Below, one piece after another: positions 133 to 58,727 of a DNA stretch of 64,000 bases. Each line of letters begins with the position of its first letter. The stretch's first letter is position 1. The stretch covers positions 928,001-992,000 of the forward strand of contig CAVRJM010000001.1 of the NCBI GenBank assembly GCA_963722075.1, given 5' to 3'. Made by a program: the position numbers and the translations under genes. Source of the stretch: Candidatus Babeliales bacterium. Its GTDB lineage: Bacteria > Babelota > Babeliae > Babelales > JANWKD01. The notes below the pieces were generated by a model. That model did not search any database. It had not been told where the DNA came from and worked only from the letters and a program-made list of their open reading frames with translations.

Positions 133-1401
133 ATGTCTATGAAATATAATTATTCTCTTCTTGCTTTATTTGTATTTATTTTTTTTACGGCTCAATCACT
201 TTTTGCAGCAAATCCAACATTTTTTGTATTAGAAACACAATTAAACCGACTAGCTCAGGAATTAACTGCTTTACAAAACACCTTGATGCCTCAACAAAAA
301 TATACACAAACTGAAGCATTACTCAGTATTCCCGCAATTAAAAATCTGGTATATAAAAAATACCCTTATTTAAAAACAAAGCGCGGCAACAAATTTTTGA
401 AAAAAATTCTGCGCATTGAAAAAAAATACAAAGCAACTCATTATGTTTTTTATCATGCATTCACTAAAGCATGGATGGTTCCACAGGATCTTATGTATGA
501 ACTAACCAAAAAATTACGCCCGCTCACGTCCAAATTACCACTTTTTCGTTTCTTACGCTGGCAAGATTTTGAACGAATCACCGCTGCCGATTTTTTAATG
601 AAGGAAATTAGTTCTGAGGGGCTAATTAATGATAATGATCCTAAGCACCGCGCATCATTACTTTCAGTAAATTTAGCGCTTTTTGGCAACATAGATTTTG
701 AAGGAGAAAGTACTTTTCACTATTTCATGAATCCTACCAGCCATGCTACGGTAAGCCCAGAAATCATTAAAGGCATTCTTGCCATCTTTGATCTGCCATT
801 AACGCATCTTGATGAGATTCTTGAGCTTGATGAAAAATATTTATCTCCTGAAAAAAAGGCGGGCGGCAAACCAAAAGCTCAAATTTTATTACAGATCTTT
901 GTTCCTAAAAAATTAGTAGATGACGTAGGGTATCTTTCTTGGGTGCAAGGAATTCCGTATGAAAAAGAATTAGTTGCTATGGTGGATAATATGGCACGAA
1001 CATCGCTTGCACATCAACCTGGATTTCTAACCGGAACGCAACCTATTTTAAAACAGATAAAAGATCGCTTTAAAAACGATAAAGAAAAAGACCCATTATA
1101 TGCAAAAATTATGAAACATATAAAAAAAGGTAAATTTAGACTATCAACATTTTTACAAAAATATACCAATGAACCCGCTACTATTCCAGGTATTGCTAAT
1201 ATCCAAGCACGCTTATTATTTACTGACACACTGCTCTTGAACCCCAGCAGCAATATTCTTTTTTATACACATGACTATATTCCTAGGGCAGATAAAGAAA
1301 AATATAAAAAAGAACTTAATAGTATTGTACAATCCATTGTTTTAGAAAAATTAAGTAAAAATAAGCCTTCTCAACCAAAGAAGAATGCTCCAAGTAAGTA
1401 A
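133..1401 (+). CDS. Exported hypothetical protein with post-signal leucine-heptad segment; possible ADP-ribosyltransferase-like fold
   Basis: 422-aa ORF; signal peptide, then LETQLNRLAQELTALQNTL; YVFYHA and LLSVN motifs. Confidence 0.6.
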   Translation: MSMKYNYSLLALFVFIFFTAQSLFAANPTFFVLETQLNRLAQELTALQNTLMPQQKYTQTEALLSIPAIKNLVYKKYPYLKTKRGNKFLKKILRIEKKYKATHYVFYHAFTKAWMVPQDLMYELTKKLRPLTSKLPLFRFLRWQDFERITAADFLMKEISSEGLINDNDPKHRASLLSVNLALFGNIDFEGESTFHYFMNPTSHATVSPEIIKGILAIFDLPLTHLDEILELDEKYLSPEKKAGGKPKAQILLQIFVPKKLVDDVGYLSWVQGIPYEKELVAMVDNMARTSLAHQPGFLTGTQPILKQIKDRFKNDKEKDPLYAKIMKHIKKGKFRLSTFLQKYTNEPATIPGIANIQARLLFTDTLLLNPSSNILFYTHDYIPRADKEKYKKELNSIVQSIVLEKLSKNKPSQPKKNAPSK

Positions 1402-1476
1402 TTATGATGATTAAATAGTAAGTTTAGTTGGAGCTTTTTAAACATTATAAATTTATGCACAAAGCTTAAATGGTAT

Positions 1477-1618
1477 TGGATCACCACGTTCCGTCTACGT
1501 TAATCCAGCCGTCGCTCAAAAGCTATGGCGGAGTAAACAACTTCGCCGGACAGGCGCTTGCTACTATCAGAATCCGTCGTAGCCTTAACGAAGTCAAACG
1601 CCGCTCCTCGTGACGACA
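1477..1618. repeat. Nested palindromic intergenic repeat (REP/RPE-like composite)
   Basis: TGGATC...CTCGTGACGACA frame with internal GC-rich hairpins; homologous to 10919-11030. Confidence 0.8.
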
Positions 1619-1646
1619 TCCGTCGAAAAAACCTTTTCAGTAATTA

Positions 1647-1671
1647 AAGCGCAAGCAATGAACTTGCGCTT
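1647..1671. terminator. Hairpin, probable terminator between convergent genes
   Basis: AAGCGCAAG-caatgaa-CTTGCGCTT. Confidence 0.55.
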
Positions 1672-3467: not shown

Positions 3468-4955
3468 ATGAAAAGATTTTTATTATTATTATTTTTTTTC
3501 TCATGTTATTTACAGGCGCAACTTAAAGATGAGTTAATGGCATTACAAAACAAACTTATCGAACTTAATTCAGCGCTCACCGCAGTAAAACCCGTTAAGC
3601 AAAAGACCCCTTTAGAACTAGTAACGGATATAGAACTTGGCTTACTTGCTGATTTTTCTAAATTAGTAAATGCTTCTAACCAATTTAAGTTAAAAAAAAG
3701 CTTCCCTACCATTAATAATTTAATTTCTGTAATTGCGCAAAATGATAAAGACAAGCAAAAACAAATAGCATTGGATGCTAATTCTACTTACCCTATTATG
3801 CATCGTGACGTGCTTACGCTCATCGATAATTTTTTAGATGATAAAAGAAAATTTGGTACCCCCATTGAAAAAAATCTGTATAAAAATATGGATCGTAATG
3901 CTTTAATTAATCGACTTCTTACCAAACGTCCACTTATGTTTATGACCGCGCAAGATCAATATCTTTTGCGCGATGGAATAACAGAAGGATACGGCGGCTT
4001 TGATGAAATTGGTAGACAAAATGAAAAATCACCCTTCATCCTTAAGGATTATATTTCTTATAGTGAAATGCAAATTGCTGCCTTATTAGGCGTGAGCGTT
4101 CCTACCTATTTTATTAATGATGGCGATCGCAGCAATAAAGGAATACCAGGAAAACCAGGAACTTATGAACCACATGGCATCTATGCAGGCCTGGTTGGCG
4201 CACGCTTTGAACGTCCGAATTTGATGGAATGGCAACAAATAATAATTACCCCTGAGCAAAATAGTGCTCAATATGGTTATGGATTAACAAATAAAACCCC
4301 ACTCGCACTAGGGCGATGGGAAAAACTATATGGTCTTAAATTTCCTACGTATCAAGAAGCAGTCAGTGATATATCAGGTCGATTTATTCCAATTAAGGAA
4401 GGCTTTTTTGATAAAGATGCTTATATAAAACGAATCGAATTAGTTATAGAACCATTTTTATTAGATGCCCAGAAGCGCGGCTCACAAGCCTATAAAAAAG
4501 TATATATCCGCGTTGTAGGATTAGGTTTAGGGGTATGGAAAATAATAGATGAGCAAGAACAATTTATGCTTGAAGCATATAGAAACATATTAAACCGACA
4601 TAATTTATCAGAAATTTCAGATATCGATTTCATATTTTTTAGCAAATATGCTTCTTTAGGAGGAATAACTGCTGAAACTGATAATGATATATATAAAAGC
4701 CCGTATAATTCGATAAGAATTCATTTTACCGAAAATAAGCCAGCAACGCCATTAAAAGGGCCTCATGCTGGCAAATTATTATATTGTAATTATGCATGGG
4801 ATGGCAATTCATATCCGGGCAATGAATATTGGGCTGGAATGTTAGCTGCTTCAGGAGATCCCGCAGCTGCTTGTTGTTCTACCATTCCTGAATTACAAAA
4901 TCCTGAAATCAACCATAATGTTTCAGCAATATATATGCGCACATACCCGCAATAA
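3468..4955 (+). CDS. Exported DUF4804/MavL-like macrodomain protein
   Basis: Start at MKRFLLL after GAGGAAG; KRPLMF, YISYSEM, GARFE, YAWDGNSYPGNEYW, SGDPAAACCS motifs. Confidence 0.7.
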   Translation: MKRFLLLLFFFSCYLQAQLKDELMALQNKLIELNSALTAVKPVKQKTPLELVTDIELGLLADFSKLVNASNQFKLKKSFPTINNLISVIAQNDKDKQKQIALDANSTYPIMHRDVLTLIDNFLDDKRKFGTPIEKNLYKNMDRNALINRLLTKRPLMFMTAQDQYLLRDGITEGYGGFDEIGRQNEKSPFILKDYISYSEMQIAALLGVSVPTYFINDGDRSNKGIPGKPGTYEPHGIYAGLVGARFERPNLMEWQQIIITPEQNSAQYGYGLTNKTPLALGRWEKLYGLKFPTYQEAVSDISGRFIPIKEGFFDKDAYIKRIELVIEPFLLDAQKRGSQAYKKVYIRVVGLGLGVWKIIDEQEQFMLEAYRNILNRHNLSEISDIDFIFFSKYASLGGITAETDNDIYKSPYNSIRIHFTENKPATPLKGPHAGKLLYCNYAWDGNSYPGNEYWAGMLAASGDPAAACCSTIPELQNPEINHNVSAIYMRTYPQ

Positions 4956-13020: not shown

Positions 13021-13284
13021 ATGAAAAAATTATCACTTTATTTTTTAACTTTTTTATGTCTTATATTTGCCACTAAGCTTTGTCCTATGAACGCCTTTAA
13101 AAATCGGTTTAAACTCTGCTCATGGAAAACAGCAGCATTCGGCGCTTTTGCCGGAACCTGTACCGCTGTACATTATGGCTTATCTTATGTTCCAGCGATG
13201 GCGCATATTGTCGGAACAGCAATTTTTGCCACAAATTTATTTACTGAAAAATGCACCGCATCAACTGCCTCTTCAAAAGGATAG
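13021..13284 (+). pseudogene. Truncated paralog of 12036-13004 (N-terminus only)
   Basis: About 95-bp near-identical copy (FKNRFK.CSWKTAAFGAFAGTCTA.HYGLS); runs into the convergent gene. Confidence 0.75.
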
Positions 13285-13739
13285 TGAGTGTGAATATATT
13301 GTTGTATCGTGGTTCTTATCTGCGTAAAGTAATCAACCATATATTCTTTAAACTCTTTTGCCAGACTCTTATCAGTTGCCCATAATTTTTTATGTACCGC
13401 ATTACAACGTTCAATTAAAGGCTTCAAGAATATTCTTTCAAGGGTAAATAATTGACGATATGAAAAATCTTCAACGTTCCATTCCAACTGATCTGTTATC
13501 ATAATAAGATATTCAAATAATTCTTCTGAAGGGTTTTTTTCAAATTCTACCAAAGCAATAAAAACGGCTTCGATCTGGTTTTGAAGTTGCTCAAATTTTT
13601 TTGAACTTATTGGCTTTAATTGATTTTGTAAATTTTTGAGCTTTTCCTGTAATTGAGAAAGTGATTGTTCAAGGGCCTGGCTTTTAAGAAGATTCGCAAA
13701 GAATAATACTGCAATAATGGTCATTAATAGCTTCTTCAT
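13185..13739 (-). CDS. Exported helical protein with post-signal leucine-heptad segment
   Basis: Signal peptide, then LEQSLSQLQEKLKNLQNQL; RBS AAGGA. Confidence 0.7.
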   Translation of the reverse strand: MKKLLMTIIAVLFFANLLKSQALEQSLSQLQEKLKNLQNQLKPISSKKFEQLQNQIEAVFIALVEFEKNPSEELFEYLIMITDQLEWNVEDFSYRQLFTLERIFLKPLIERCNAVHKKLWATDKSLAKEFKEYMVDYFTQIRTTIQQYIHTHYPFEEAVDAVHFSVNKFVAKIAVPTICAIAGT

Positions 13740-18836: not shown

Positions 18837-19505
18837 ATGGTAAAAAAAATTATTATAGCCAGTTCGCTTTTGGTAATAACGCAATCAACCACTTCTTTGG
18901 AGCAAACGTTGCAACAACTCAAAACAAATTTATCTTCGCTTAATTTTCATCTGCATAAACCGCCGCAAGCATGCTCTTCATCACTTTCTGCCATTGAATG
19001 GGATATACATTTAGAAAAGGCCGCTCAACAAGGAATTATCGCCCAGAAGTCATCAATAGATCGTTTATTTGATGCCATTGACGATCAGATCATACAATTT
19101 AAAAAAGCGATAACTCATTTTAAGCAATCACTTGAAAAATTTAATGGTGATATAGCAAACAAATCAAATGAACAGCTGGAAGCTGAATTTAAACAGATAA
19201 TAAAAACATATAAATCAATTAATAATGATGAATTAACTACCTTATTATTTACGTTAAAAGATAATAAAGATCCTTATACAATTACCGATAAAAAGTATGC
19301 CCAAAAGCTTTTACGTAAAATTAAAAGAATAAAAAAAGAATTAAAAAATTATATGGAAGCGCAAAAAAAAGCTGCCTTCTATAATGATGAACAACTTAGA
19401 AAAAAATATAATACATTGATCAAAAATGAAATTCAAAGCTTTAAAAATTTTAAAGCATTTATAGAAAAATTTAGAAAAAAGTGGCAAATGAATATTCTAT
19501 TCTAA
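18837..19505 (+). CDS. Exported helical protein with post-signal leucine-heptad segment
   Basis: Signal peptide, then LEQTLQQLKTNLSSLNFHL; start uncertain (18819-18837). Confidence 0.65.
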   Translation: MVKKIIIASSLLVITQSTTSLEQTLQQLKTNLSSLNFHLHKPPQACSSSLSAIEWDIHLEKAAQQGIIAQKSSIDRLFDAIDDQIIQFKKAITHFKQSLEKFNGDIANKSNEQLEAEFKQIIKTYKSINNDELTTLLFTLKDNKDPYTITDKKYAQKLLRKIKRIKKELKNYMEAQKKAAFYNDEQLRKKYNTLIKNEIQSFKNFKAFIEKFRKKWQMNILF

Positions 19506-19520: not shown

Positions 19521-20081
19521 GTGAAAAAATATCTATTATTATCGCTTTTTGCTTCCATGTTGACGACGTTACGAGCTGGTGAATTAAGTGATGAGTTGAT
19601 GCAATTAAAAGCAAAATTGGATGATTTGCAAAATAGTTTTGGCGGAATTGGTAGAGCTAAAAAACAATTAGATCCAATAATAAATGCATTGAATGTAGCC
19701 ATTTCAAATTTGTCTGATTCATATAGAGGTGAATTTAATAATGCACTCATTTGGTTCCTAGCAGACCCTGAATCCATTAACGATTTTCGTAAAACGTATT
19801 ATTCATTTGAGGAAAAAATAGCTGAAGTAATACCACCCCTTAAATCTTTAAATAATTTTCAAGGACCTAAGAATAGTATACTTGATAAAGATTTGGTAAA
19901 GGACACTCTTAAACCGTTAATTGAAATTATGGAAGTTACAAAACAAAGGTTAGAAGCTATAGGAGGGATGCCCACAGAAATTTTAAACAAGTTCACTGGC
20001 GCTAACTATAAAGTAGTTCAAGACTTAGTTCGAAAAATAACTTCAGCATGGGGAATTAAAGTTGAAGTTCAAACAAAATAA
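19521..20081 (+). CDS. Exported helical protein with post-signal leucine-heptad segment
   Basis: GTG start after AAGGAG; signal peptide, then LSDELMQLKAKLDDLQNSF. Confidence 0.7.
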   Translation: MKKYLLLSLFASMLTTLRAGELSDELMQLKAKLDDLQNSFGGIGRAKKQLDPIINALNVAISNLSDSYRGEFNNALIWFLADPESINDFRKTYYSFEEKIAEVIPPLKSLNNFQGPKNSILDKDLVKDTLKPLIEIMEVTKQRLEAIGGMPTEILNKFTGANYKVVQDLVRKITSAWGIKVEVQTK

Positions 20082-29240: not shown

Positions 29241-29777
29241 TTAGCTAATGATGTTACCTATACTAGTAAACTGTATCAATTTTTTTTCATCTTTGGAAAT
29301 GGAAGACGGTAATAATTCTATAAGATTCATCGCTTGAAACAAATTTGTTTTTTCCAATGTTTGTATGCAATCGAGTAACAATTCGATCTCGTTAATCTCT
29401 CCTTTTAATTCTATAGCTTTTGCATCAATCGTTATTGATGAAAATCGCATACTGGCAGGTATACTGTTAGCTAATGCTATTAAATATGCACTATAATCTT
29501 GTTTATGAGAGAATGCGGTAACTTTTTTTCGTCGTTTTTTATTTTTTTTGAGCTGCTTTTTAATATTCTTATTTTCTTCATGCACCACATTAGTAACCTG
29601 CTCTGTTAAGCACTGAGCCTCATTACGTACCTTATACCAAGATAGTAATTGAACCGCCGTCATTATCGATAATAGCATAATAAGGGCACCAATAAGCACG
29701 CTGCTGCACCAAATCCAGTTACGCCATTTTTTATATTCATGAGGCGGTAAAGCTGAGATTAAATTACTGGAGTTCAT
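29241..29777 (-). CDS. PilN-like protein
   Basis: NLI.. motif, single TM, coiled coil, IP..MRFSSI..IELKG. Confidence 0.6.
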   Translation of the reverse strand: MNSSNLISALPPHEYKKWRNWIWCSSVLIGALIMLLSIMTAVQLLSWYKVRNEAQCLTEQVTNVVHEENKNIKKQLKKNKKRRKKVTAFSHKQDYSAYLIALANSIPASMRFSSITIDAKAIELKGEINEIELLLDCIQTLEKTNLFQAMNLIELLPSSISKDEKKLIQFTSIGNIIS

Positions 29778-31550: not shown

Positions 31551-33101
31551 ATGAATCAAATAAAAATAGTAATGGTGCTAGTAATGAGCATATGGTGTTA
31601 TCACAATAGTAATGCCATGAATGAACCCCTCGTTCCACTCATGGAACAATTAAAAGGTAAATTAAATGAATTGGGAAATGTACTTACCGGGCGCGGACCA
31701 ATACCATCAGTTACTATTCCTACAACAACTACACCAACGCCATCAATTGAACAGGTGCCATTTACTGAACAAAATACAATAGTGAAAGGGTATATAGATA
31801 AATTAATATTTAAGGATGCCGCATATAATTTGAAGAATAACATTGATCAAATTTATAACTATATAAAAAAGATCGTTCCATTTTCTTTTGATGACTTTTT
31901 AAATGTAGAAGATAATTATGTTGATAATTTATACATTATTATTTCTTTAGAATTAGCTTCCTATAGCGCTGAAGAAAAACAAGCACTCTACAATTTAATT
32001 TTCTATTGGACTTCATTTATAGATTCTCAACAAACAGCAATCAAAAATCTTATTAAAAATAAAAATAATATAAATAAATATGAAAAAATACGAGCAGCTC
32101 AAAAAGCTTTAGAGGAACAAATTTTTATAGTAGTAAAACCAACCCATGGCGCCGGCCCATCTCGCCCTGTCACGCAACAAACAACACATGATCTTATTTT
32201 TCCGTCAGCGTATTTGGTTAATAATGAAAATTATGCACAGTATGTACCTGCAGAAGTCCCTATAAAAATAGGTAATAATCGCCTCCAACAAGTACTCACT
32301 ATAAGTCAATTTTTAACGCCTGATAATTTATTTATCACTACTAATCCACAAGTAATTATAGATCTAATAGGTTTAAGAATGAAAAAATACATTGATTTCC
32401 TTCTTAAATTTAATGCCGATTTGCCCCCACAAAATCCGAATATCGAAGACATTGTTATTGGCGGAGGTGCTGCTCCTAGTTGCGCGTACCAAGCATTAAG
32501 GAATTGTGCAATTCTAATTGAAGCATTTGATGCACGCTCTAATAATGAATATGATCAAAAAATTTCTCAATTTTATAATTTAAAAAATCTTAACTCTTTG
32601 TTTGGTAAACCAGAAAGTAATAAATTAGTAGGAAACCCACAAGAAAATGGTAAATGGAGAGAATTTATTATTAACCGAAGAATTTCTCAACATGCTGATA
32701 CAGATAATGGCGATTGGTTATTTGCCCCTGAAATGAAAGTATTAATAAATAACTTATTGAAACGGTTTATAAATACCATTGTGGTACTCGAAGATATGGA
32801 TGATTTGAAAAGTAGTGATTCTTATGAAAGACTTAAAAAAGAATTAACTCAGCCTAATAAAATTGGTGGATTTATTCTTTTTCATCCTTCTCCGGATAAT
32901 CCTAATGGCCATTGGTTTGCATTAGTAGTTACTACTAATGCTCAAGGCAGAAAAACATTTACTATTGCAGATTCTACCAACACCCCACGCTACCCAAAGG
33001 AAGACGATCAATTCACAAAAAATGAATTCACTAACAAACTTTTAGATTATATTATTACTGATTTTAACAGAGAAGTTTTTAGGAGAGTTACGTGGTTGTA
33101 A
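31551..33101 (+). CDS. Exported protein with leucine-heptad segment and C-terminal cysteine-protease-like domain
   Basis: Signal peptide; SCAYQALRN...GHWFALVV...IADS. Confidence 0.6.
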   Translation: MNQIKIVMVLVMSIWCYHNSNAMNEPLVPLMEQLKGKLNELGNVLTGRGPIPSVTIPTTTTPTPSIEQVPFTEQNTIVKGYIDKLIFKDAAYNLKNNIDQIYNYIKKIVPFSFDDFLNVEDNYVDNLYIIISLELASYSAEEKQALYNLIFYWTSFIDSQQTAIKNLIKNKNNINKYEKIRAAQKALEEQIFIVVKPTHGAGPSRPVTQQTTHDLIFPSAYLVNNENYAQYVPAEVPIKIGNNRLQQVLTISQFLTPDNLFITTNPQVIIDLIGLRMKKYIDFLLKFNADLPPQNPNIEDIVIGGGAAPSCAYQALRNCAILIEAFDARSNNEYDQKISQFYNLKNLNSLFGKPESNKLVGNPQENGKWREFIINRRISQHADTDNGDWLFAPEMKVLINNLLKRFINTIVVLEDMDDLKSSDSYERLKKELTQPNKIGGFILFHPSPDNPNGHWFALVVTTNAQGRKTFTIADSTNTPRYPKEDDQFTKNEFTNKLLDYIITDFNREVFRRVTWL

Positions 33102-42072: not shown

Positions 42073-43272
42073 TTAACTAATTACTGAAGACAAATTAAAC
42101 AATGGAACATACAAGGCAAAAACAAGCGATGTTATTAATAACCCCAAAATAATCATTAAAAGCGGTTGTAATAACGTAGCTAATGTTGTCAAAGTACGAT
42201 TAATCTGCTCTTTATATAACTGTGCTATCTGCTCAAAAACAAATGGCATACATGCCGATTCATGCCCTACTGCCAATAATGCAACTACTTGATCAGGAAA
42301 AAGGCTCTTTTCATTTTTGATAGCAGTTGCAAAAGATGCTCCTTCCAAAATAGCACATTGAACGCGCGCCATAGCCGCTCTTAAATAATAATTGCTGATC
42401 GATTGCTGTGCTATTTCTAACGCAGTAACCAAATGTATGCCTCTTTTAGTTAATAATGCTAAGGACTGAAAATAATAAACGAAAGTGATATGGTGCGTAA
42501 TCGTTTTTAAAATTGGAATAGTTACCATGCCCCATTCTATTGCACGAAGCATTACTTTGCTCCGTTTAAGTACATAACTAATACCGGTTATTATTATTGC
42601 CGCAAGAATACTATAGATCGGGAACCATATGGTTCTTACAAAATCACTGAGTAAAAAAATGAAAGCGGTGCTGGTGGAACATGATTGATTACACGAAGAA
42701 AAGAGCGCATTAAAGCGCGGTACAATAACAACTATGATAATAGTGGCAATAAGAACAAAAAATACAAATGTAATAAATGGCATTAATAGTATTGATCGAA
42801 TTTTTTTCTTAAAATTAAGAAATAATTCTTGGTAAGTACATAATTCTTCTAAAGCCGGCACCATCGTTCCTGATTCCTGCCCCGCTTGAACAATAACAAT
42901 ACTTAATTCATCAAAAACTAAGGGATAATTACGTAACGCATGTGCAAGCGTAATACCATTTTGAATATCGGTTAATACATCTTGAATAATAGCCTTAAAA
43001 TAGTTCTTTTTTATTTGGTGCATAATAAGCAGTAACGCTTGATCTAAATAAATACCCGCAGCTAGTAATAATCGTAATTGTCTAAAAAAGGTAATTTTCT
43101 CAGCTAATGAAATTGTATGAATTAATGGAAATGGCTTTTTTATTGCATAGCGCAGCAACGCAATCTGCTCTTGAAATAATAACGAGGAAAGCTCTTCATG
43201 GGAATGTGCTACAAACACGCCCGAGCGTGTTTTACCCATTATATCTATGCCATACCATTTATATTGCGGCAC
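42073..43272 (-). CDS. pilC: Type IV pilus / T2SS platform protein (PilC/GspF family)
   Basis: FFRQL..LL.AGI, AGQESGT, LQPLLMIILG, ALYVPLF. Confidence 0.88.
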   Translation of the reverse strand: MPQYKWYGIDIMGKTRSGVFVAHSHEELSSLLFQEQIALLRYAIKKPFPLIHTISLAEKITFFRQLRLLLAAGIYLDQALLLIMHQIKKNYFKAIIQDVLTDIQNGITLAHALRNYPLVFDELSIVIVQAGQESGTMVPALEELCTYQELFLNFKKKIRSILLMPFITFVFFVLIATIIIVVIVPRFNALFSSCNQSCSTSTAFIFLLSDFVRTIWFPIYSILAAIIITGISYVLKRSKVMLRAIEWGMVTIPILKTITHHITFVYYFQSLALLTKRGIHLVTALEIAQQSISNYYLRAAMARVQCAILEGASFATAIKNEKSLFPDQVVALLAVGHESACMPFVFEQIAQLYKEQINRTLTTLATLLQPLLMIILGLLITSLVFALYVPLFNLSSVIS

Positions 43273-43403
43273 CGCAAACTCCTTTTATTTAATACAAATT
43301 GGTGTACTTATATCGTAATAATGCAAAAGTAATATTGTGAAGATTTAGCTTATTACGGTGCATAATAGACTATTATAGAGCTCTTTTTGGAAACAATTGT
43401 ATA

Positions 43404-43488: not shown

Positions 43489-43509
43489 AATTTAATTACT
43501 TCCTTTAAA

Positions 43510-43866: not shown

Positions 43867-43898
43867 AATAAAGCATCACTGAATGCCTTTTCAATATC

Positions 43899-44195
43899 CT
43901 AGAAAATAATCTTTTGTTGAACTGCTTTTTCTAAGCCAATTCTTTCTAAAAACTGCTCATAGGTAAGTGGCGTATCAATTTTTATTTTTTTAGTGCGGCC
44001 CGTTGCGCCCGCAATAAGCGAAATACTACGAATGGGGATTTTTAATGAATCGGCAATAAATTCAAGTAATTCCATATTAGCACGGCCCTTTTCGGGCGCA
44101 TTTTTAAGATAGCATTTGAGCCGACCGGATTTATCCAGTAGCCAGCAACGGCGGCCACTACTAGGTGTCACTTTAACCTCTATGATAAGAGCCAT
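43899..44195 (-). CDS. DUF167 (YggU-like) protein
   Basis: VKVTP, APEKGRAN.EL, GATGRTK. Confidence 0.88.
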   Translation of the reverse strand: MALIIEVKVTPSSGRRCWLLDKSGRLKCYLKNAPEKGRANMELLEFIADSLKIPIRSISLIAGATGRTKKIKIDTPLTYEQFLERIGLEKAVQQKIIF

Positions 44196-45055: not shown

Positions 45056-45393
45056 TGGCATGCCAATTCTTTTAAGGAAATATTTCCCCCCAAAACCCCT
45101 TTGTATCCAAAAAAAACTCTTAAAATACAAATTAAAAAGCCATTTTAATCCATACTTTCTATTTTTTATGGTAAAAAAGGGTCTAAACATACATTTTTTT
45201 GCCATTGTTCTGCCGTTATTTTGCCAATAAAAACTCGTTATTTCAGTTTTAGCGATATTTTGTATATAAAATACTATTTTATGGCTTTTTAACTGGAATT
45301 ATCAACAAATTTCTATTTGACAATTTATAAAATCTATACTATATTTTAATTACTGTTAATACATATTTTATGGATAAAAATAGAGGTTATTTC

Positions 45394-47595: not shown

Positions 47596-47616
47596 AGAGA
47601 ATAATGGAGTTATAAA

Positions 47617-49773
47617 ATGAAATTAATTAAAAAATTATTATTCCTCATGTGTGCACTTACTATAGCACAGAGCTATGGTATGAAGCGTAAAGCATCAGAA
47701 ATAGGATCTACATCAAAAACTAGTAATAAAAAAATAGAATATGATTCTGAAGTTATTGTTACATTTAAAACTACTGATGATCAATCTATACCGGTAAAAT
47801 TACACTATATTTCTGAGTATTCTAGAACATTATATGATATGTTTATAGATGCAAACGATTCAAATGAACCTATTCCAGTACCATTTTCATCAGAACCATT
47901 CACTTTTATCAGTGTTGCATTAGAAACAGCTTCCCACGGATCTTTTGATGCAAAGTTTGATGAAAAACTTGAATCGTTGAGCATATCTCAACTTATTGAT
48001 ATTGCTAATGCTGCTTCTTGGACCGATTTCCAACTTCTTATAGAATCAGTAGTAAAAGCACTTACTAATCGCTGCTTAAAAAATCCTTGTGCTCAAATAT
48101 TACGCAAATATAAAAAAAAAGATTTAGCTGATGCGCTACTTACTATAATTACTACTAACCTTATTGTTTTAGCCACTAATGATGGTAAAACATTTACCAT
48201 TTCATGCGATGAAATAACCGATTTTAAAGTTATTCAAAAAATGTTTAATGATCTTGAAAACAATAGTGAACCAATTCCACTACCTAATATTTCTTCCCCC
48301 ATATTAGAAGTACTTTTATATTGCAACAAGCATACAAGTAATTCGCAATCCATTATGAAGGAACTAATGGCTTATGATTTGAAACCTCTCTTTGACCTTT
48401 TTAATGCTGCTGATTATTTAGATCATGAAAAACTAGTCCATTTATTTGCCAGTATTATCGGTAAAAAGTTAAGTGATCCTGCATCATTACATGATTATGA
48501 GGACGTTGCTTGGGTTTTACAAAATAGCTCACCGTTACTTATTGAAAACCTACATAACGCATCATTCTTTAATTCATTACTTCAGCTGGTCTGTATACCA
48601 GATAAAATTAGTGAAACTACCCTGACAAATGACGGAGAATATTTCCAAATTGCTTTTGGTCCTGGTGATCAAACGCTTATAGCGAATGGTCACAGAAATG
48701 TTACGGTATGGGATACCAATTCTAATACCTGGATAAATACATTACCTAGGTTAAACAACGATTATCATTCCCAAGTGATCTTGTGCCCTAGTGCACAAAT
48801 CGCTGCTATTACTGGCCCCAGTGTTATTAAACTATATGATGTTATTACTAATAACTGTATCCTCACCTTAACAAACACTCCCGCTTGGGTTAAATATTTT
48901 GACTTTAGTCCTGATGGGAAAACCTTTGCTTTTTCTGACGACTATACTACCCAACTATGGAGTACACATACCGGTGAACATCTCCATACTTTAAGTTCTA
49001 CTGATTCAAATCATTTTTTTGCCTTTAGCCCTGATGGAAAAATCATTGCTAATTGTACTAAGAAAGCTATCAAATTATGGAATGTTACGACTGGAAGCTG
49101 TATCCATACTTTAGAAATTTCAGATAAATATATTGATCTTATTGTCGATTTAAAATTTAGTCCAGATGGGCAAACTTTAGCTACTTCCTCTTGGGATACC
49201 ACTACTAAATTATGGAATGTCATTACTGGAGAATGTATCTATACATTGCAAGGCCATAGTGGGGGAATCGAGGATATTGCCTTCAGTCCTAATGGCCAAA
49301 TCCTTGCTACTAGTTCTGTTGATCAAACTATTAAATTATGGGATGTTACTACTGGTGAATGTCTTCAAACGTTAAATATATTCAAAAAAGCGAATCGTAT
49401 TACCTTTAGCCCTGACAGTTGCATACTTGCTAGTTCTTCAAATAACATTATTCAATTATGGGATACTATTACTGGTAACTATATTCACACGATAAGCACA
49501 CATACTCAAACAATTCAATCTCTTGCCTTTAGTTCTAACAACCACATACTCGCTAGCGCATCAAATAGTACCATTAAATTACATCCTATCAGAGATCAAG
49601 AATTGTTAAATACGTATTGTAGTCTACCGCTAGAACAATTATTATTGCTTGCTTTCTGCCATAATGCTCATAGCCACCATATACCTTTTAATTTCTCTCA
49701 GCATGCATATTTAAATGAAATTTATGAAAGTTGCCCGGACACTGTTCGAACACGGATCCCGGATTTAAAATAG
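47617..49773 (+). CDS. Exported Skp1/BTB-like x2 + WD40 repeat protein
   Basis: LATNDGKTF, EPIPLPNI, LFNAADYL; WD40 repeats. Confidence 0.85.
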   Translation: MKLIKKLLFLMCALTIAQSYGMKRKASEIGSTSKTSNKKIEYDSEVIVTFKTTDDQSIPVKLHYISEYSRTLYDMFIDANDSNEPIPVPFSSEPFTFISVALETASHGSFDAKFDEKLESLSISQLIDIANAASWTDFQLLIESVVKALTNRCLKNPCAQILRKYKKKDLADALLTIITTNLIVLATNDGKTFTISCDEITDFKVIQKMFNDLENNSEPIPLPNISSPILEVLLYCNKHTSNSQSIMKELMAYDLKPLFDLFNAADYLDHEKLVHLFASIIGKKLSDPASLHDYEDVAWVLQNSSPLLIENLHNASFFNSLLQLVCIPDKISETTLTNDGEYFQIAFGPGDQTLIANGHRNVTVWDTNSNTWINTLPRLNNDYHSQVILCPSAQIAAITGPSVIKLYDVITNNCILTLTNTPAWVKYFDFSPDGKTFAFSDDYTTQLWSTHTGEHLHTLSSTDSNHFFAFSPDGKIIANCTKKAIKLWNVTTGSCIHTLEISDKYIDLIVDLKFSPDGQTLATSSWDTTTKLWNVITGECIYTLQGHSGGIEDIAFSPNGQILATSSVDQTIKLWDVTTGECLQTLNIFKKANRITFSPDSCILASSSNNIIQLWDTITGNYIHTISTHTQTIQSLAFSSNNHILASASNSTIKLHPIRDQELLNTYCSLPLEQLLLLAFCHNAHSHHIPFNFSQHAYLNEIYESCPDTVRTRIPDLK

Positions 49774-49782
49774 AGGTTTTAA

Positions 49783-52461
49783 ATGAAATTAATTAAAAAA
49801 TTATTACTCCTCATATGTGCGCTTACTATAGCAAATGGCTATGGCATGAAGCGTAAAGCATCAGAAATAGGATCTACATCAAAAACTAGTAATAAAAAAA
49901 TAGAATATGATTCCGAAGTTATTGTTAGATTTAAAACTACTGATGATCAACCGGTATCGGTAAAATTATATTATATTTCTAAGTATTCTAAAACATTATA
50001 TGATATGTATATAGATGCTGACGATTCAAATGAACCTATTCCCGTACCATTTTCATCAGAACCATTCACTTTTATCGCTGATGCGTTTCAAAGGGTTATT
50101 AACTCAAACTTATTTGAAAATAAACTTTATGAAAAAATTCAAGAGTTAACCATAGATCAATGCATTAACCTTGCAAATGCCGCTTGCTGGGCTGATTTTC
50201 AACTACTTATTGAAGCTATAGTAGAAATTATTACTCATCGTTGCTTATATAGCGAAAATCTTTCACCACAAGAAGTGTTAGATGAATATCAAAAACGGGA
50301 ATTAAATGATGCTTTACTCTTATTAATCAAAAATAAATTAAATCCCATTGAAAAACCATCTTTTACCATTACTTTCAAAACTGATGACGATCAACTAATT
50401 GAGGTGAATTCTATTTATTTCGTTGGTCAAGCCGACACGTTGCTTCAATTATTTAGACAACGGGGTGGGCAACCAGTTGCCATTCCATTTTCAATGGAAA
50501 CTTTTACTTTCATCATAGAAGCACTGCAACATAGCTATAGTACACAATCATTTGATGGCGAATTTTGTAAAAAATGGGAATTATTAACTCACAACCAATT
50601 GATCACTATTGCTAATGCCGCTCACTGCTATAATATTGAATCATTATTACAAAAAATAATAACAATAATAACGCATCGATGTTTAACTAGTGATGAATGC
50701 TTACACCCCCAGCTTGCATTGCAATCATATTATGAAAATGGCTTAGCTTCTGAGCTAATCCCATTAATCCAAAATGAACTTAATACAATCATCTCATCTG
50801 AAGAAAACACCATTGTTTTAATTACCAACGATCATCAAGAAATCGCTATTTGCCCATCTCAAGCACGTTCTTTTAAAACAATTCAAAATACAATAGATTC
50901 TTATGAAAATACAAATGAACCTATTTTTCTGCCCAATATTTCTCAAAACATATTGATGCTTCTTCTTCAAGCGCTCAAAAATATTACATATCAACACATA
51001 AATTCTTCAGTAGTCATAGAAGGTCTTGCAAATCAAACTGTTGAAACACTTATCGCTCTTTTTAATGCTGCAGATTATTTAGGAAGTGATTACGTATGCA
51101 AAGCACTTATGGCTACTATTGAAAAAAAATTGGATGAGCCTAGTTTTTTAGATAATTATGATAGTATCGCCTGGTTGTTACAAAGTAATTTTGATTTTTT
51201 TAATGAAACATTACAGAGCGGTTCATTTTTTTATTCATTATTACAACTAGTAGCTAAACCCCAAACAAACACACCAGCCAATATAATAAATCATGGTACA
51301 ACAATAAAAGGTATGAAATTTAGCCCAGATGGCCAACTTCTTGCAACTCTTACTGACAAAACCGTAACTATTTACAATTCTCATGATGGTTCAATTCTAG
51401 ATACATTAGAAGGTTTTTCTCTGGAGTACCCATCTTTATTATTTAGTCCCAATGGGCAATTTATTGTGGTACATGATAAAGGACCTTATGGAACTAGACT
51501 TATTATTAAAATATATGATGTTATCAATAAATCTTGTGTATACACATTACAATGCAAGAGCAATGTTAGAAATACCGTTTTCAGTCCTGATAGCCAAAAT
51601 CTTATTATATATTATTCTCATGGCACTATTGAATTAGTTAATATCATTAATAAATCTTATGATACTGTCGAAACTAACAACAAAAAATTTATGTGCACCG
51701 CATTTAGCCCCGATGCAACTATTTTTGCTATGACTTCAGATAATTTCATACAATTGTGGGATATTTATGAGTACCGTTATTTACCAATTTCAACTGGGCA
51801 TAAGGAACGAGTTAAGCATTTAGCATTTAGTCCTGATGGAAAATTCCTAGTAACAATCTTTATCGGTAACGATATCAAAATTTGGGATGTTTCTGATGGT
51901 TCTTGCTTACGTACAATAACCCATAATAATAGTTATATTAACCATGTTGTCTTTAGTCCCGATGGGGAATTTTTTGCTACATGCGCTGACAATGGCACTA
52001 TTACCTTATGGACCAATAATGGTGACCGGGTAAAAACATTGCTTGCTCATGATCAGCCAGTTTCATTCATTGCATTTAGTCCTTATGGGCAAATTCTTGT
52101 CTCTCAATCTGCTAAAACCGCTAAAATATGGGATATTAATAATGGATCTGGCATTTCAGAATATCATATCAGTGAAAAAGCTTTTATTAATTTTTTAGCC
52201 TTAAGTCCTGACGACCAACAACTCGCTATCAATTCTTCCGATGGAACCACTGCGTTATATCCCCTTTATGATCATGATCTGGCAACATCGTTTATGGCGT
52301 TACCTTTTGAACAATTGCTACTACTCAAACTATGTTATAATGCTTATAGGTATACTATTCCATTCAATTTTTCTGGCCATCCGTATTTAAAAGAAGTGTA
52401 TGATAGTTGTCCTGATATCGTCCAAACATGGATTAATAAATTAATACCACCACAAAAATAG
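49783..52461 (+). CDS. Exported Skp1/BTB-like x3 + WD40 repeat protein
   Basis: Three FKTxD/LITND-initiated domains; LFNAADYL; WD40 repeats. Confidence 0.85.
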   Translation: MKLIKKLLLLICALTIANGYGMKRKASEIGSTSKTSNKKIEYDSEVIVRFKTTDDQPVSVKLYYISKYSKTLYDMYIDADDSNEPIPVPFSSEPFTFIADAFQRVINSNLFENKLYEKIQELTIDQCINLANAACWADFQLLIEAIVEIITHRCLYSENLSPQEVLDEYQKRELNDALLLLIKNKLNPIEKPSFTITFKTDDDQLIEVNSIYFVGQADTLLQLFRQRGGQPVAIPFSMETFTFIIEALQHSYSTQSFDGEFCKKWELLTHNQLITIANAAHCYNIESLLQKIITIITHRCLTSDECLHPQLALQSYYENGLASELIPLIQNELNTIISSEENTIVLITNDHQEIAICPSQARSFKTIQNTIDSYENTNEPIFLPNISQNILMLLLQALKNITYQHINSSVVIEGLANQTVETLIALFNAADYLGSDYVCKALMATIEKKLDEPSFLDNYDSIAWLLQSNFDFFNETLQSGSFFYSLLQLVAKPQTNTPANIINHGTTIKGMKFSPDGQLLATLTDKTVTIYNSHDGSILDTLEGFSLEYPSLLFSPNGQFIVVHDKGPYGTRLIIKIYDVINKSCVYTLQCKSNVRNTVFSPDSQNLIIYYSHGTIELVNIINKSYDTVETNNKKFMCTAFSPDATIFAMTSDNFIQLWDIYEYRYLPISTGHKERVKHLAFSPDGKFLVTIFIGNDIKIWDVSDGSCLRTITHNNSYINHVVFSPDGEFFATCADNGTITLWTNNGDRVKTLLAHDQPVSFIAFSPYGQILVSQSAKTAKIWDINNGSGISEYHISEKAFINFLALSPDDQQLAINSSDGTTALYPLYDHDLATSFMALPFEQLLLLKLCYNAYRYTIPFNFSGHPYLKEVYDSCPDIVQTWINKLIPPQK

Positions 52462-52471
52462 AGGTTATAAA

Positions 52472-54682
52472 ATGAAATTAATTAAAAAAATACTAGTACT
52501 TGCTTGCGTACTTCCGTTGTTCAGTACTTATTGTATGGAAAACTCGACCGTTCTATGCAAAACGAGCGATGAGAAGTATGTTCGCCTTCCCGTAGAATAT
52601 CTTAATAAATCACGAACCTTCTATAATGATTTTATTGAAGCAAGCAAAAAAACAGATAAACAATCAATTCCAACGATTAACGTATTTTGCTCTAAAGAAA
52701 CATTCATATTGCTCATGGAAGCGCTTAAGATAGCTTATCTAAAGGATTCTTTAGATAAATCATTTTGTGAAAAGCTTTCAGCATTAACTACTCCTACTCA
52801 AGGGCTTATTGATCTTGCCAACGCCGCCTGCTACGCCGATTTCCAACTGCTTATAGCAACAATGATAGAAATCATAGGTCAGCGATGCTTGGATCATGAA
52901 TCTTATTTACCAGATGAAATGTTACAATCTTATAAAAAAATGGGCTTAACGGATGAATTTGTTGCATTAGTTATCCGCTATTTAAACTCGCCTGCACTTA
53001 ATAGATCATCGATGGAAACAGAACCACAAACTATTACCATTTTTACCAACGATGATGAAACATTCACTATTCCTATAGCAATAGCAGCTCATTTTAAAAT
53101 TATTCAAAATATTCACCCCTTTAATGAAGAGTTAACAAGACCAATTGAATTACCAAATATTAATTCAACGGAATTAGAAAAGCTTCTTCATCTTCTTAAC
53201 AAGCTTCTGCAATCTGATGAAGAACAATCGGATCTTATTAATGAATTACTATCTTATGATATTAAGGATGTTATTACTCTTTTTAACGCGGCAGATTATT
53301 TAAATAGCGATACATTATGTGAATTGTTACTCAGTGTTATCGAGCAAAAATTAAAAAATCCTGAACTTTTATATGATAATGACACCATTGCATGGATACT
53401 ACAAAATCAGCAAAATAGAACCATACTTATTAACCATCTGATTCAAACGCCTTTTATTAAGGGATTACTCAATTTTATTTGCAAATCAGATAAAATTGAA
53501 CCTGTTGCGCTCAGAGGATATAGCGGCCCTTACCGTATTGCTTTTAGTCCTGATGAAAAAATCCTTGCTACTACTACTTCTCGTACAATAGTACTTTGGG
53601 ATACCGCCACGGTTAAAGCCCTGCGTACCCTAGATATGGGTAGAACTTTTAGTCTTGCCTTTAGCCCAGATGGGAAATTTCTTGCTACCGGTTCAGATGG
53701 CAAAAATGCTATTAAATTATGGAATCCTCATACTGGCGACTGCATCCATACCTTCCAAAAAGCGAATGGTCATTTCACGCGTCTTACCTTCAGCCCTAAT
53801 GGGAAAATACTTGCCTCTGTTTGCGCTTCTGATTCCTTTCAGCTTTGGAACACAAGTACATTTCGTTGCCTTTATAAGGCAACCAATATTAACCGAATTC
53901 CTGGTGTAGCTTTTAGCCCTGATGGAAAATTTTTAGCCGCCTGTTCTGAAAATATTCTTAAAATATGGGATACAAATACTTTTGACTGTATTTATACTCT
54001 TGATGAGCATACTGCGCAAATTAATCGTTTTGCATTTAGTCCACAGGGCCATTTTGTTGCTACCTGTTCTGACGATACCACTATTAAACTGTGGGATGTT
54101 GATACCGGTAGATGTGTACGAACTTTTAATGATACCGATAAAGTTACCTGTTTAACCTTTAGCCCCGATGAGAAAATACTTGTCACCGCCTCTTCTGATC
54201 ATTATCGTAAACTCTGGGATGTACATACTGGCAAATGCTTAAAAGCAACTTACGGTCCTCAATTTTGCGTTCTTGCCTTTAGTCCACATGGCCTATTTCT
54301 TGCAGGTTCATCCAAGGATAGTGTTAGTTTATGGGATACGAGTACTAATTACTCATTAATTCATAATGATAGCCATAGAGAAGTAGATGCCCTCCGGTTT
54401 AGCCCTAATGGTCAATTTCTTGCTACTGCATCTTTTGGTGAGGTCTTTTTACGAAGAATGGTTGATACGGCAAAAATAGAAGAATATAAATATTTACCAC
54501 CAGAACAATTGTTGTTACTTGCCTTTTGCTATAATGCGTTTGCAAACAAAATTACTTTTGATTTCTCTTGGCACCCCTATTTAAACGAGGTATATAATAA
54601 CTGTTCTTCTGCAGTACGTGATCTGATTACCCAAAAGTTAATGCCAACTGGTTACCAACCAAGCTCATGCTTACTTAGTTAA
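52472..54682 (+). CDS. Exported Skp1/BTB-like x2 + WD40 repeat protein
   Basis: IFTNDDETF, PIELPNI, LFNAADYL; WD40 repeats. Confidence 0.85.
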   Translation: MKLIKKILVLACVLPLFSTYCMENSTVLCKTSDEKYVRLPVEYLNKSRTFYNDFIEASKKTDKQSIPTINVFCSKETFILLMEALKIAYLKDSLDKSFCEKLSALTTPTQGLIDLANAACYADFQLLIATMIEIIGQRCLDHESYLPDEMLQSYKKMGLTDEFVALVIRYLNSPALNRSSMETEPQTITIFTNDDETFTIPIAIAAHFKIIQNIHPFNEELTRPIELPNINSTELEKLLHLLNKLLQSDEEQSDLINELLSYDIKDVITLFNAADYLNSDTLCELLLSVIEQKLKNPELLYDNDTIAWILQNQQNRTILINHLIQTPFIKGLLNFICKSDKIEPVALRGYSGPYRIAFSPDEKILATTTSRTIVLWDTATVKALRTLDMGRTFSLAFSPDGKFLATGSDGKNAIKLWNPHTGDCIHTFQKANGHFTRLTFSPNGKILASVCASDSFQLWNTSTFRCLYKATNINRIPGVAFSPDGKFLAACSENILKIWDTNTFDCIYTLDEHTAQINRFAFSPQGHFVATCSDDTTIKLWDVDTGRCVRTFNDTDKVTCLTFSPDEKILVTASSDHYRKLWDVHTGKCLKATYGPQFCVLAFSPHGLFLAGSSKDSVSLWDTSTNYSLIHNDSHREVDALRFSPNGQFLATASFGEVFLRRMVDTAKIEEYKYLPPEQLLLLAFCYNAFANKITFDFSWHPYLNEVYNNCSSAVRDLITQKLMPTGYQPSSCLLS

Positions 54683-56389: not shown

Positions 56390-56544
56390 TGGATCCCCAC
56401 GTTCCTCGGGATGACATATGGTTTTTATCTTTTAATTTGATCTTCACGGCCTAACGGCCTCGGGATGACAAAAAATAAGATATTTTGTTTACATTATTCC
56501 AAACGGTAATATTGTCATCCTGAGCGTCAGCGTAAGGATCCAGT
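56390..56544. repeat. Cluster of three palindromic repeats
   Basis: TGGATCCCCACG..CTCGGGATGACA-like twice; TGTCATCCTGAGC..GGATCCAGT. Confidence 0.85.
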
Positions 56545-56610
56545 AAATAAAAACATTCCTTTTTCTTTTATTTTTTTTCCATACTTCAAAAGAAAGTATG
56601 AGGAAAAAAG

Positions 56611-57909
56611 ATGCAGATAAACAATAAATCGGCTATGCCGATTCAGCAAGTATATTGGTATATCAATAAGCCATTAAATCCGCCACTTAAAGAAAATATC
56701 ACCGTTGATGTTCTTATTATTGGCGGTGGCATGGCCGGATTAAGTGCCGCCCAAGCATTTCATGAAAAAGGGTTGCGCGTTGCGCTCATAGAAAAAAATT
56801 TTTGTGGCGCTGGAGCAAGCGGCAAAAGTTCAGGATTTATTACTCCCGATTCAGAATTTGCACTCCATAATTTAATTGATTTTTATGGAAATGAGGTTGG
56901 CAAACGCCTTTGGGAATTTTCTTCTAACGGCGTAGCACTCATAGAAAAGAATATACACCAACATAAGATTTCATGTGATTATCAAAAACAAAATACGCTG
57001 GTTATTGCTTCAAGCCATCATGCTTTTAACTCATCAATTAAAGCAGAATATCAGGCACGCAAACAATTTAATTACGCTGCAACTCTTTATGAAAAAGATC
57101 GGGTGCCTTCAATTCTAGGATCATCAAGCTATTATGGCGCTATTGAATATCCTGACACGTTTGGCATACATGCATACGCCTATTGCCAAGAAATGAAAAC
57201 GATTTTAACAAATGCGGGTGTTTTACTATACGAAGATACGCCGCTTACGAGCTTTACTACAAACGGTGCGCAAACGCCACATGCCACGATTACTGCTGAT
57301 AAAGTAATTGTTTGTATTGATCGCTTTATTAATGATTATGCAAAATTGCTTTCTCAAGTATACCATGTACAAACGTTTTTAATGATGAGTGAACCCGTAT
57401 CAGATCAGGTAATTAATGCGTTATTTCCAGCACGCAAATTTATGGTATGGGATACCAATCTTATTTATAATTATTTTCGCTGCACCGGGGATAATCGATT
57501 AATGCTGGGGGGCGCACGGCTTTTATCAACGTATGCTCCACGTGAACATTATCATAATAAAAAAATAATTAAAAAATTATCTTCTTATTTCAAAAAAAGC
57601 TTCCCGCAAGTTGATATTCAATTTAATTATATATGGCCAGGCCTTATTGGGATAACCAAAGATATTATGCCTATTGCCGGACCGGATAAACAACATCCTC
57701 ACATTTATTATATTAGCGGGGCCGCCGGGCTACCATGGGCTGCAGCCTTGGGCGTCTATAGTGCACAGCATATACTAGAAAACCGTACTGATTTAGATGT
57801 CGTGTTTTCTCCTGAACGCCATTTTGCACTCGGCAGTTGCGCACAAAAATTATTAGGAACACCGCTTACATTTGCTTTATGTAATTTTATGCGCACCAGA
57901 TCACTATAA
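56611..57909 (+). CDS. FAD-dependent oxidoreductase (DAO/PuuB-like)
   Basis: IIGGGMAGLS, GASGKSSG, WPG..G.T.D.MP.AG. Confidence 0.88.
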   Translation: MQINNKSAMPIQQVYWYINKPLNPPLKENITVDVLIIGGGMAGLSAAQAFHEKGLRVALIEKNFCGAGASGKSSGFITPDSEFALHNLIDFYGNEVGKRLWEFSSNGVALIEKNIHQHKISCDYQKQNTLVIASSHHAFNSSIKAEYQARKQFNYAATLYEKDRVPSILGSSSYYGAIEYPDTFGIHAYAYCQEMKTILTNAGVLLYEDTPLTSFTTNGAQTPHATITADKVIVCIDRFINDYAKLLSQVYHVQTFLMMSEPVSDQVINALFPARKFMVWDTNLIYNYFRCTGDNRLMLGGARLLSTYAPREHYHNKKIIKKLSSYFKKSFPQVDIQFNYIWPGLIGITKDIMPIAGPDKQHPHIYYISGAAGLPWAAALGVYSAQHILENRTDLDVVFSPERHFALGSCAQKLLGTPLTFALCNFMRTRSL

Positions 57910-57914
57910 AAATT

Positions 57915-58727
57915 TTAATTTGGAAAATCGCGAATAACATCTACATCAACCGCTCCACCACCAATTTGTAATGCACGTGCTTTTACCCTTCTACGGTCCC
58001 ACATCCGTGCATGGTAAATAATAAAATCAAGGATAGTTTTTCCTATTGCCGGCTTACCACCCGCATAGGTAGTCCGTTGTAATTCCTTCATCAACGGATA
58101 ATTAACTATCGCGTTACGTAGCTGTTCATTCTCATCTGAGAAAGATTTTGGTATGAGAGAATAAGAAGTTTTGGGTTGTGGTATAGCACGTAATTTATCT
58201 CCTGCCCCATGAATACGTTTGGCTGCTCTATAAATTTTTTTAAGAAATTTACGTATAGGCTGTGTTGTACTAAGAGGAGCATCTGAAGTATTATAAGCAG
58301 CCATAGCTTTAATAGTATTGTATAATGGTGGTATATGGTCATCTATTATTTCTAATATTTCAAGTATTCTTATTAATATTCTCGTAATTATCCGTTGGTC
58401 GCTGGCTTCACCCTTGACATAATCTGGTAAATAATCGGAATTAAGAATTAATCTGGTCACCGCGTCTTCAATTAAAGCAAATTCTGCGCAACCTTTATGA
58501 AATAAATCATTTAATGCTTCAGGGGTTACTTGTTTATCACATATTTTCAATGATATGATAGGTTTTTCTGGTTGTACTGATACCGGAATCGTGGGAGGAA
58601 TGCCTGGCGTTAAATAATTATGTAACGTAGTAAGACGATTTTTTAAATCACCTAATTCTGTTTCTAAGGAACAATGTGCAATTTGAAAACCGACCAAAAC
58701 AATTACTGAAGCAATATATTTATTCAT
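57915..58727 (-). CDS. Exported hypothetical protein with post-signal leucine-heptad segment
   Basis: Signal peptide, then LETELGDLKNRLTTLHNYL and Pro-rich linker. Confidence 0.7.
   Translation of the reverse strand: MNKYIASVIVLVGFQIAHCSLETELGDLKNRLTTLHNYLTPGIPPTIPVSVQPEKPIISLKICDKQVTPEALNDLFHKGCAEFALIEDAVTRLILNSDYLPDYVKGEASDQRIITRILIRILEILEIIDDHIPPLYNTIKAMAAYNTSDAPLSTTQPIRKFLKKIYRAAKRIHGAGDKLRAIPQPKTSYSLIPKSFSDENEQLRNAIVNYPLMKELQRTTYAGGKPAIGKTILDFIIYHARMWDRRRVKARALQIGGGAVDVDVIRDFPN

Follow-up and report, generated by a model that had tools for sequence, protein, structure and literature searches.

A leucine-heptad tag at the termini of signal-peptide proteins in a Babelota genome

Seven tagged genes in one window

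We analyzed a 64,000-nucleotide stretch of DNA (the window; contig CAVRJM010000001.1, positions 928,001 to 992,000) from a Candidatus Babeliales bacterium, probably a protist parasite, whose genome assembly (GCA_963722075.1; genome G000 below) is 1.47 Mb long and 99% complete. Seven genes of the window encode a 19-residue tag with the register LxxxLxxLxxxLxxLxxxL, placed after a signal-peptide-like start and usually followed by a Pro-rich linker (Table 1). The open reading frames (ORFs) and 19-mers named in the original prediction all translate as stated, each tag lying behind a signal-peptide-like N-terminus. The shared register was confirmed in all seven, although in two of them M or F occupies two of the core positions. 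The cargos had been described as unrelated, and BLAST similarity among the seven was indeed absent at an E value of ≤1e-3. Gene calls and signal peptides came from our own crude scripts, the signal peptides from a hydrophobicity test plus inspection, so that the denominators given throughout are approximate; among 70 crude ORFs of the window, of which 30 were signal-peptide-like, strong profile matches were confined to the seven.

The cargo of the gene at 3468, previously called MavL-like, matched Pfam family PF16062 (E value = 1.7e-115). The labels "Cys-protease-like" and "ART-like" given to other cargos did not hold up, since Pfam, PDB, and the ESM Atlas all returned no match. The motifs in the cargo of the gene at 31551, which has no database match, are suggestive by eye of a permuted Ulp1-like protease, and a Ulp1-like protease family is described in PMC4378268. 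The ESM Atlas gave no usable match for either the tag or the cargo of the gene at 133, and a by-eye likeness of this cargo to an untagged protein of another Babelota genome, G020, was unsupported by BLAST (best E value = 0.17).

Table 1. Tagged genes, their tags, and context genes, in window coordinates
Feature	Position	Strand	Basis
Signal peptide, tag, 370-aa cargo without family match	133..1401	+	ORF translation, Pfam
Tag 1, LETQLNRLAQELTALQNTL	229..285	+	
Signal peptide, tag, linker, MavL-like domain	3468..4955	+	Pfam, model
Tag 2, LKDELMALQNKLIELNSAL	3522..3578	+	
Signal peptide, tag, helical cargo	13185..13739	-	
Tag 3, LEQSLSQLQEKLKNLQNQL	13617..13673	-	
Signal peptide, tag, helical cargo; next tagged gene (19521) directly after	18837..19505	+	
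Tag 4, LEQTLQQLKTNLSSLNFHL	18897..18953	+	
Signal peptide (GTG start at 19521), tag, helical cargo	19521..20081	+	
Tag 5, LSDELMQLKAKLDDLQNSF	19584..19640	+	
Signal peptide, tag, Pro/Thr linker, and a cargo that has Cys, His, and Asp motifs	31551..33101	+	
Tag 6, LVPLMEQLKGKLNELGNVL	31629..31685	+	
Signal peptide, tag, Pro linker, cargo without family match	57915..58727	-	
Tag 7, LETELGDLKNRLTTLHNYL	58611..58667	-	
Context: second pilC/gspF platform gene (pilC2); no tagged gene behind it in G000	42073..43272	-	
Context: DUF167 gene directly upstream of pilC2	43899..44195	-	
Context: PilN-like gene, weak Pfam match (E value = 2e-4)	29241..29777	-	

Terminal placement, abundance, and distribution

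A profile scan showed the tag to be more widespread than the window, with further matches in other Babelota genomes and 38 tagged signal-peptide proteins in G000, all of which look exported on inspection. The expectation that the tag lies close behind the signal peptide held for 26 members, where it is at the mature N-terminus, but not for the other 12, where it is at or near the C-terminus, so its position is not exclusively N-terminal. The strict pattern was found in 21 of 1,578 crude ORFs of G000 (7 of them the seeds), always in terminal windows (17 behind the signal peptide and 4 C-terminal), while 50 shuffled proteomes gave a mean of 1.78 proteins (maximum, 6), with 0.52 terminal (maximum, 3).

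To guard against circularity, we scored G000 with a profile built from other genomes only. Of 38 matches, 31 fell at the termini of signal-peptide proteins (22 in post-signal windows and 9 in C-terminal windows; odds ratio = 42, P value = 1e-25). The 7 matches elsewhere comprised 3 terminal tags on proteins missed by the signal test, 2 tags at 35 to 43 residues from the C-terminus, and 2 coiled coils in cytoplasmic proteins, which by eye are ClpB and a release factor and were left out as chance coiled coils. The same test in G020 placed 9 of 17 matches at termini (odds ratio = 11). The tag is thus rare in cytoplasmic proteins and in protein interiors. A partial match (L225) was omitted from the anatomy counts below, and C1:525636 and weaker candidates, which fell below the member thresholds, were excluded. 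The claimed Pro linker was borne out: Pro occurs within 12 residues after 24 of the 26 N-terminal tags (Pro fraction, 0.195) versus 212 of 504 control windows (0.047).

About 94% of the signal-peptide proteins are untagged (38 of approximately 630 are tagged), as are 116 of 120 MavL-like homologues, and type II secretion system (T2SS) genes also occur in genomes whose tags are few or lacking. The tag is therefore not a general export signal, and the idea of a general second-step signal has to be abandoned. The 629 exported proteins examined yielded no other recurrent tag at the C-terminus.

Two further arrangements were seen in G000. Four tagged genes are clustered at C1:1075639-1082832, with near-identical duplicated segments and one gene apparently split into two frames. 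At C1:343387-343503, a near-consensus orphan tag (343435-343500) ends a 38-codon frame without cargo, whose ATG overlaps the stop codon of phoH and which contains two in-frame stops.

We then scanned 261 Babelota genomes with a signal-plus-tag profile (E value ≤ 1e-4), scoring the best candidates of each genome (27 at most), so that the counts are lower bounds. The tag was matched in at least 21 of the 261 genomes. By Babelota family (f numbers), it was found in at least 2 of 4 genomes of f1 besides G000, at least 6 of 10 of f11, at least 7 of 35 of f12, 2 of 2 of f17, 1 of 1 of f21, at least 1 of 41 of f3, and at least 1 of 16 of f13, and in 0 of 80 of f19 among the candidates scored. Reading 60 loci gave 30 of 30 and 29 of 30 true tags; the single f3, f13, and f21 matches lie outside those read. 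Among cultured isolates, no tag-positive strain was identified in this analysis. The tag-poor genome G001 belongs to the same genus as G000 and is 93% complete, and it gave no match above threshold, yet faded helices are present on its Nudix, NADAR, and USP homologues; both contigs of its assembly lack a large ribosomal-protein cluster, which makes absence calls in this genome unsafe. TypA identity to G000 is 65 to 67% for the tag-rich f12 and 72 to 76% for the tag-poor f2, f3, and f5, and f12 is thus the more distant.

HMMER, run exhaustively over 1.84 billion proteins, returned 64 matches, of which 39 were signal-plus-tag proteins (18 from G000 and 21 others) and 25 were repeat proteins, mostly TPR_10; a word-indexed profile search returned 10 matches with uninformative names. 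No Pfam family matched over the tag at the cut-off, the best NCBIfam match to the 38 signal-peptide-plus-tag segments had an E value of only 0.0028, and the nearest PDB entries were designed and natural coiled coils (E value ≥ 0.035). No description of the tag was found in the Babelota/Dependentiae or T2SS literature as far as it was available, including PMC6561590, PMC4378268, PMC4776705, PMC12644861, and PMC12172432, with supplements and most subscription papers outside the scope; tables of families and of coiled coils in PMC4378268 may be relevant to its novelty. As far as searched, the tag is undescribed and would belong to the kind "portable terminal docking peptide." The view of a portable, nonrandom module on unrelated, exported, effector-like proteins, neither homologous to one another by BLAST nor matching a known family, was upheld.

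Cargo families, portability, and helix anatomy

Pfam families were found in 9 of the 38 tagged proteins (MavL-like, NUDIX, NADAR, Exo_endo_phos, Macro, DnaJ, RING, and two UCH) and in 9 of 48 tagged proteins of relatives (PPDK_N, ankyrin, metallophosphoesterase, UCH, DnaJ, and IQ). Stretches recognizable by eye as like the WH2 motif occur, with polyproline stretches, in several of the relatives' tagged proteins. Because the substrates that ubiquitin hydrolases and RING domains require are eukaryotic, the tagged proteins are likely host-directed effectors, and several have domains that probably act on host ubiquitin or ADP-ribose. Three tagged exported proteins of f12 (L061, L081, and L219) are 1,500 to 1,990 residues long and contain a PPDK_N domain, for which a glucan-dikinase-like role is a guess.

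The tag is C-terminal where the domain starts right behind the signal peptide (UCH, DnaJ, and NUDIX). Among macro-domain proteins, it is at the C-terminal end in one G000 protein (L011), at the N-terminal end in G003 and G020 (L074 and L080), and missing from a G000 paralogue (L036). Of 120 MavL-like homologues, 4 carry a clear tag and about 5 a faded one (by eye), while 78 others have a signal peptide but no tag; the names among the 120 include four Babeliales or Dependentiae, one Verrucomicrobia, and one ostracod assembly. In USP homologues, the C-terminal tag is kept in 8 of 9 proteins with very different linker lengths, and the pairing recurs in f1, f11, and f17, which indicates that it is old. 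Judged from these comparisons, the tag has been gained, lost, and moved between ends on one cargo family.

Across 94 tags, the core positions are 89 to 100% Leu, and aromatic residues make up 0 to 6%. Length and charge are set by lineage. Tags are 19 residues long in f1 and f17, 19 to 22 in f11, 22 to 26 in genome G134, and 26 to 33 in G033, G141, and G158, and the length is typical within a genome and changes in heptad register. The flanking e and g positions of f12 are 50% Lys/Arg and 4% Asp/Glu; since like charges at these positions oppose pairing in coiled coils, self-pairing is disfavored there. In the f1 helix, acidic residues prevail at positions 2 and 4, and basic ones at positions 9 and 11.

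The AlphaFold2 model of the MavL-like protein (54 sequences) has a tag helix at residues 2 to 22 (predicted local distance difference test score [pLDDT], 75 to 84), a low-confidence linker at 23 to 30, and a confident domain, with no contacts reported. A predicted complex of three tag copies scored 0.26 against a mark of 0.42, which is not evidence either way, and the single-sequence fold of macro protein L011 (mean pLDDT, 34) was uninformative. Taken together, the Leu-only cores, the growth by heptads, and the concerted change in length lead us to infer that the tag pairs, as a coiled coil, with a component whose evolution follows that of the genome.

Possible partners and competing readings

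Our preferred reading, to which we give a probability of roughly 0.45, is that the tag is a portable coiled-coil module that docks on a shared bacterial partner after Sec export and so loads or displays a subset of host-directed effectors. Sec export and cleavage would free the tag in the periplasm, at the N- or C-terminal end of the protein, and it would pack as a coiled coil and not within the cargo fold. Since the tags within a genome all change length in concert, the partner would be a product of the bacterium itself, and it would most likely be type IV-filament machinery (the T2SS or a second set of pilA, pilB, pilC2, pilN, and secretin), as this is the only secretion machinery found. The tag would then give priority in loading or tether the effector to the surface of the cell; deubiquitinases, erasers of ADP-ribose, and nucleators of actin would have a use there. 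The arrangement is reminiscent of the cellulosome dockerins, which are docking modules at either end of secreted enzymes, behind a Pro/Thr linker. Dockerins are Ca-binding duplicated domains of about 70 residues that bind cohesins; no dockerin was matched by Pfam on the 40 proteins scanned, and cohesin PF00963 had 0 matches in G000.

The secretion system identified in this lineage is the T2SS (PMC4378268 and PMC4776705), and two secretins (a second gspD) have been reported for TM6 (PMC4776705). Genomes G000, G001, and G020 have in common a PDZ-containing GspC, a pair of secretins, pseudopilins, and two genes of the pilC/gspF type, and markers of type III, type IV, and contractile secretion systems (FHIPEP, VirB4, and sheath) were not found in G000. 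Within the window, the DUF167-pilC2 pair (42073-44195, minus strand) and the pilN-like gene with its upstream neighbor (29241-30402, minus strand) keep their order in G001; these genes may be parts of a second type IV-filament set beside the T2SS. A narrower version of our reading, which we regard as doubtful, is that this second machine (pilA, pilB, pilC2, pilN, and the second secretin) reads the tag and loads dozens of effectors by coiled-coil pairing from either end. The pilC2 gene was located in 19 tag-positive genomes; in 5 of these (G020, G037, and G126 by sequence; G032 and G120 by coordinates only), the gene directly behind it, with the same orientation, is tagged, and the cargos at this site are nonhomologous between f11 and f17. 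The link between pilC2 and the tag is suggestive only, the related genomes not being independent.

A precedent for such a reader is the pair TcpF and CofJ, in which a pilin at the pilus tip is bound by the export signal at the mature N-terminus and the genes belong to the pilus operon (PMC10120004). Both cases involve a portable segment with a flexible link, which in theirs lies behind a Sec signal peptide and is read by a type IV-filament machine. Their signal, however, serves one substrate per system, is disordered, binds in extended form via an aromatic residue, and is N-terminal only (PMC10120004), whereas the Babelota tag is on 38 cargos, is a predicted helical heptad poor in aromatics, and occurs at either end (26 N-terminal and 12 C-terminal); apart from the genes behind pilC2, tagged genes are dispersed. 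T2SS substrate signals have been described as composite and structural (PMC7949064), and a linear portable tag would be another principle.

Several observations weigh against our preferred reading or its narrower version. Two pilC/gspF genes are present in 8 of 8 tag-positive genomes examined but also in 21 of 33 tag-negative ones, the adjacency to pilC2 is missing in 14 of the 19 tag-positive genomes including G000, and in G001 the place behind pilC2 is taken by exported genes that lack the tag; for these reasons, the site may be a mere insertion hot spot. A check for co-occurring machinery had been suggested, and no gene tracking the tag was found: 57 genes common to G000 and 76% of G020 and weak or absent in G001 included no evident machine, many of them being listed because of the ribosomal-protein cluster missing from the G001 assembly. 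A search for an acidic all-Leu heptad partner gave 4, 1, and 0 windows in three proteomes, none conserved or shared. The f11 and f17 e and g positions are near neutral and compatible with self-association, and lineage-specific tag length might also follow different hosts. The fourteen 33-mers have a hydrophobic period of 102.5 degrees, the heptad value, which is partly circular because tags were delimited by a heptad rule. Finally, the large untagged majority of exported proteins includes ankyrin and WD40 proteins.

Candidate partners of other kinds were rejected: outer-membrane barrel candidates also occur in G001, and exported AAA ATPases, considered for a PTEX-like translocon, are present in G000 and G001 alike. 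Other exported or machinery-associated genes were noted in passing. In G000, G001, and G020, the pseudopilin operon continues behind gspK with a gene (G000 C1:1188560-1190245) for an MCE/MlaD-like protein, which has a long helical stalk and, by eye, a barrel-like C-terminus. A conserved exported protein adjoining secD (G000 C1:623548-625080 and L047:16349-18091) has no Pfam match and combines a helical domain of 200 residues with an extended low-complexity linker; one helix of the protein resembles Tag 7. MutS-like ATPases with signal peptides (MutS_V and MutS_III) have three copies in G000 (C1:746637, 707445, and 173030) and one at L186:7721-9943. In the window, four tandem exported WD40 proteins without tag lie at 45370-54682 (Pfam was run on the first), their N-terminal domain looking Skp1/BTB-like by eye, and a transposase-like gene lies at 36216-37496 (weak rve and HTH_32 matches).

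Among the alternatives to a docking partner, self- or cross-assembly fares best and is nonetheless unlikely. Here tags would zip together, so that effectors oligomerize or co-assemble into mixed particles, much as the encapsulation peptides of bacterial microcompartments (BMCs) aggregate their enzymes. All-Leu cores favor three-stranded bundles, the best PDB look-alikes are coiled coils, the failure to find a partner gene would be expected, a genome-uniform length would also follow if tags pair together, and Glu 4 and Lys 9 of f1 would pair in a parallel bundle. Against this, f12 has Lys on both flanks, 2.5 heptads are short for a stable bundle, and a random mixing of 38 unrelated enzymes has no evident use. 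Like the tag, BMC encapsulation peptides are short amphipathic helices (15 to 20 residues) at either terminus of unrelated enzymes, with a poorly conserved linker, and only some homologues bear them (PMC4594438). In contrast, BMC cargos are cytoplasmic and enter a shell, whereas the Babelota cargos have signal-peptide-like N-termini (by our crude test) and a helix with a strict Leu heptad, which reaches 33 residues in some lineages; the BMC shell family PF00936 had 0 matches in G000 (the control matched in 2 of 14).

An improbable explanation is that the tag is a membrane anchor, an amphipathic helix with interface Lys that would bind a negatively charged membrane (outer membrane, vesicles, vacuole, or host organelle) and keep the effector there. 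In f1 and f12, Lys/Arg lie on either side of the Leu stripe, and the opposite face is neutral to acidic, which is the class A pattern; a partner gene would be needless. Outer membrane vesicles have been reported for Chromulinavorax (PMC6561590). The hydrophobic face is narrow, however (2 of 7 positions), nearly all Leu, and has few aromatics, and its period of 102.5 degrees over 33 residues compares with 98 to 100 for helices lying on a bilayer.

We consider it just as improbable that the released tag is a ligand for a conserved helix-binding groove of eukaryotes (for example, in an MIT domain, in an exportin, or, as for the Plasmodium PEXEL, in a vacuolar translocon) and places or imports the effector. 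The cargos likely act on eukaryotic substrates (UCH, RING, DnaJ, macro, and NADAR), the patchy distribution could follow host or niche, and a loose LxxR/KLxxLK/R core is present in 15 of 94 tags; yet the strict ESCRT-III MIM1 pattern, (D/E)xxLxxRLxxL(K/R), matched 0 of 94, and a fixed groove would not favor in-register growth from 19 to 33 residues. Selfish DNA, such as a mobile repeat inserted in frame in the manner of the Rickettsia palindromic elements, or chance heptads are very remote explanations: a near-perfect tag survives in the short stop-interrupted frame after phoH and identical codons are slightly above expectation (0.418 versus 0.382), but no hairpin was found (mean z = 0.13, 35 tags), the choice of Leu codons is that of the genome, the residues are what is conserved, and 21 of 21 strict matches are terminal versus 0.52 expected.

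Babelota are described as common obligate protist parasites in which at least 40% of proteins have signal peptides, with the route to the host unsolved (PMC6561590 and PMC4378268). The tag marks, by sequence alone, a class of likely host-directed effectors, most of them without a known family, and a short synthetic tag could serve as bait for finding their export route. If the partner is type IV-filament machinery, substrate choice of the T2SS type would become testable with a 19-residue peptide. If a second type IV-filament machine does read the tag, this would explain the second gspD, and the tag would be the first sequence-readable address for a many-substrate machine of the T2SS family.

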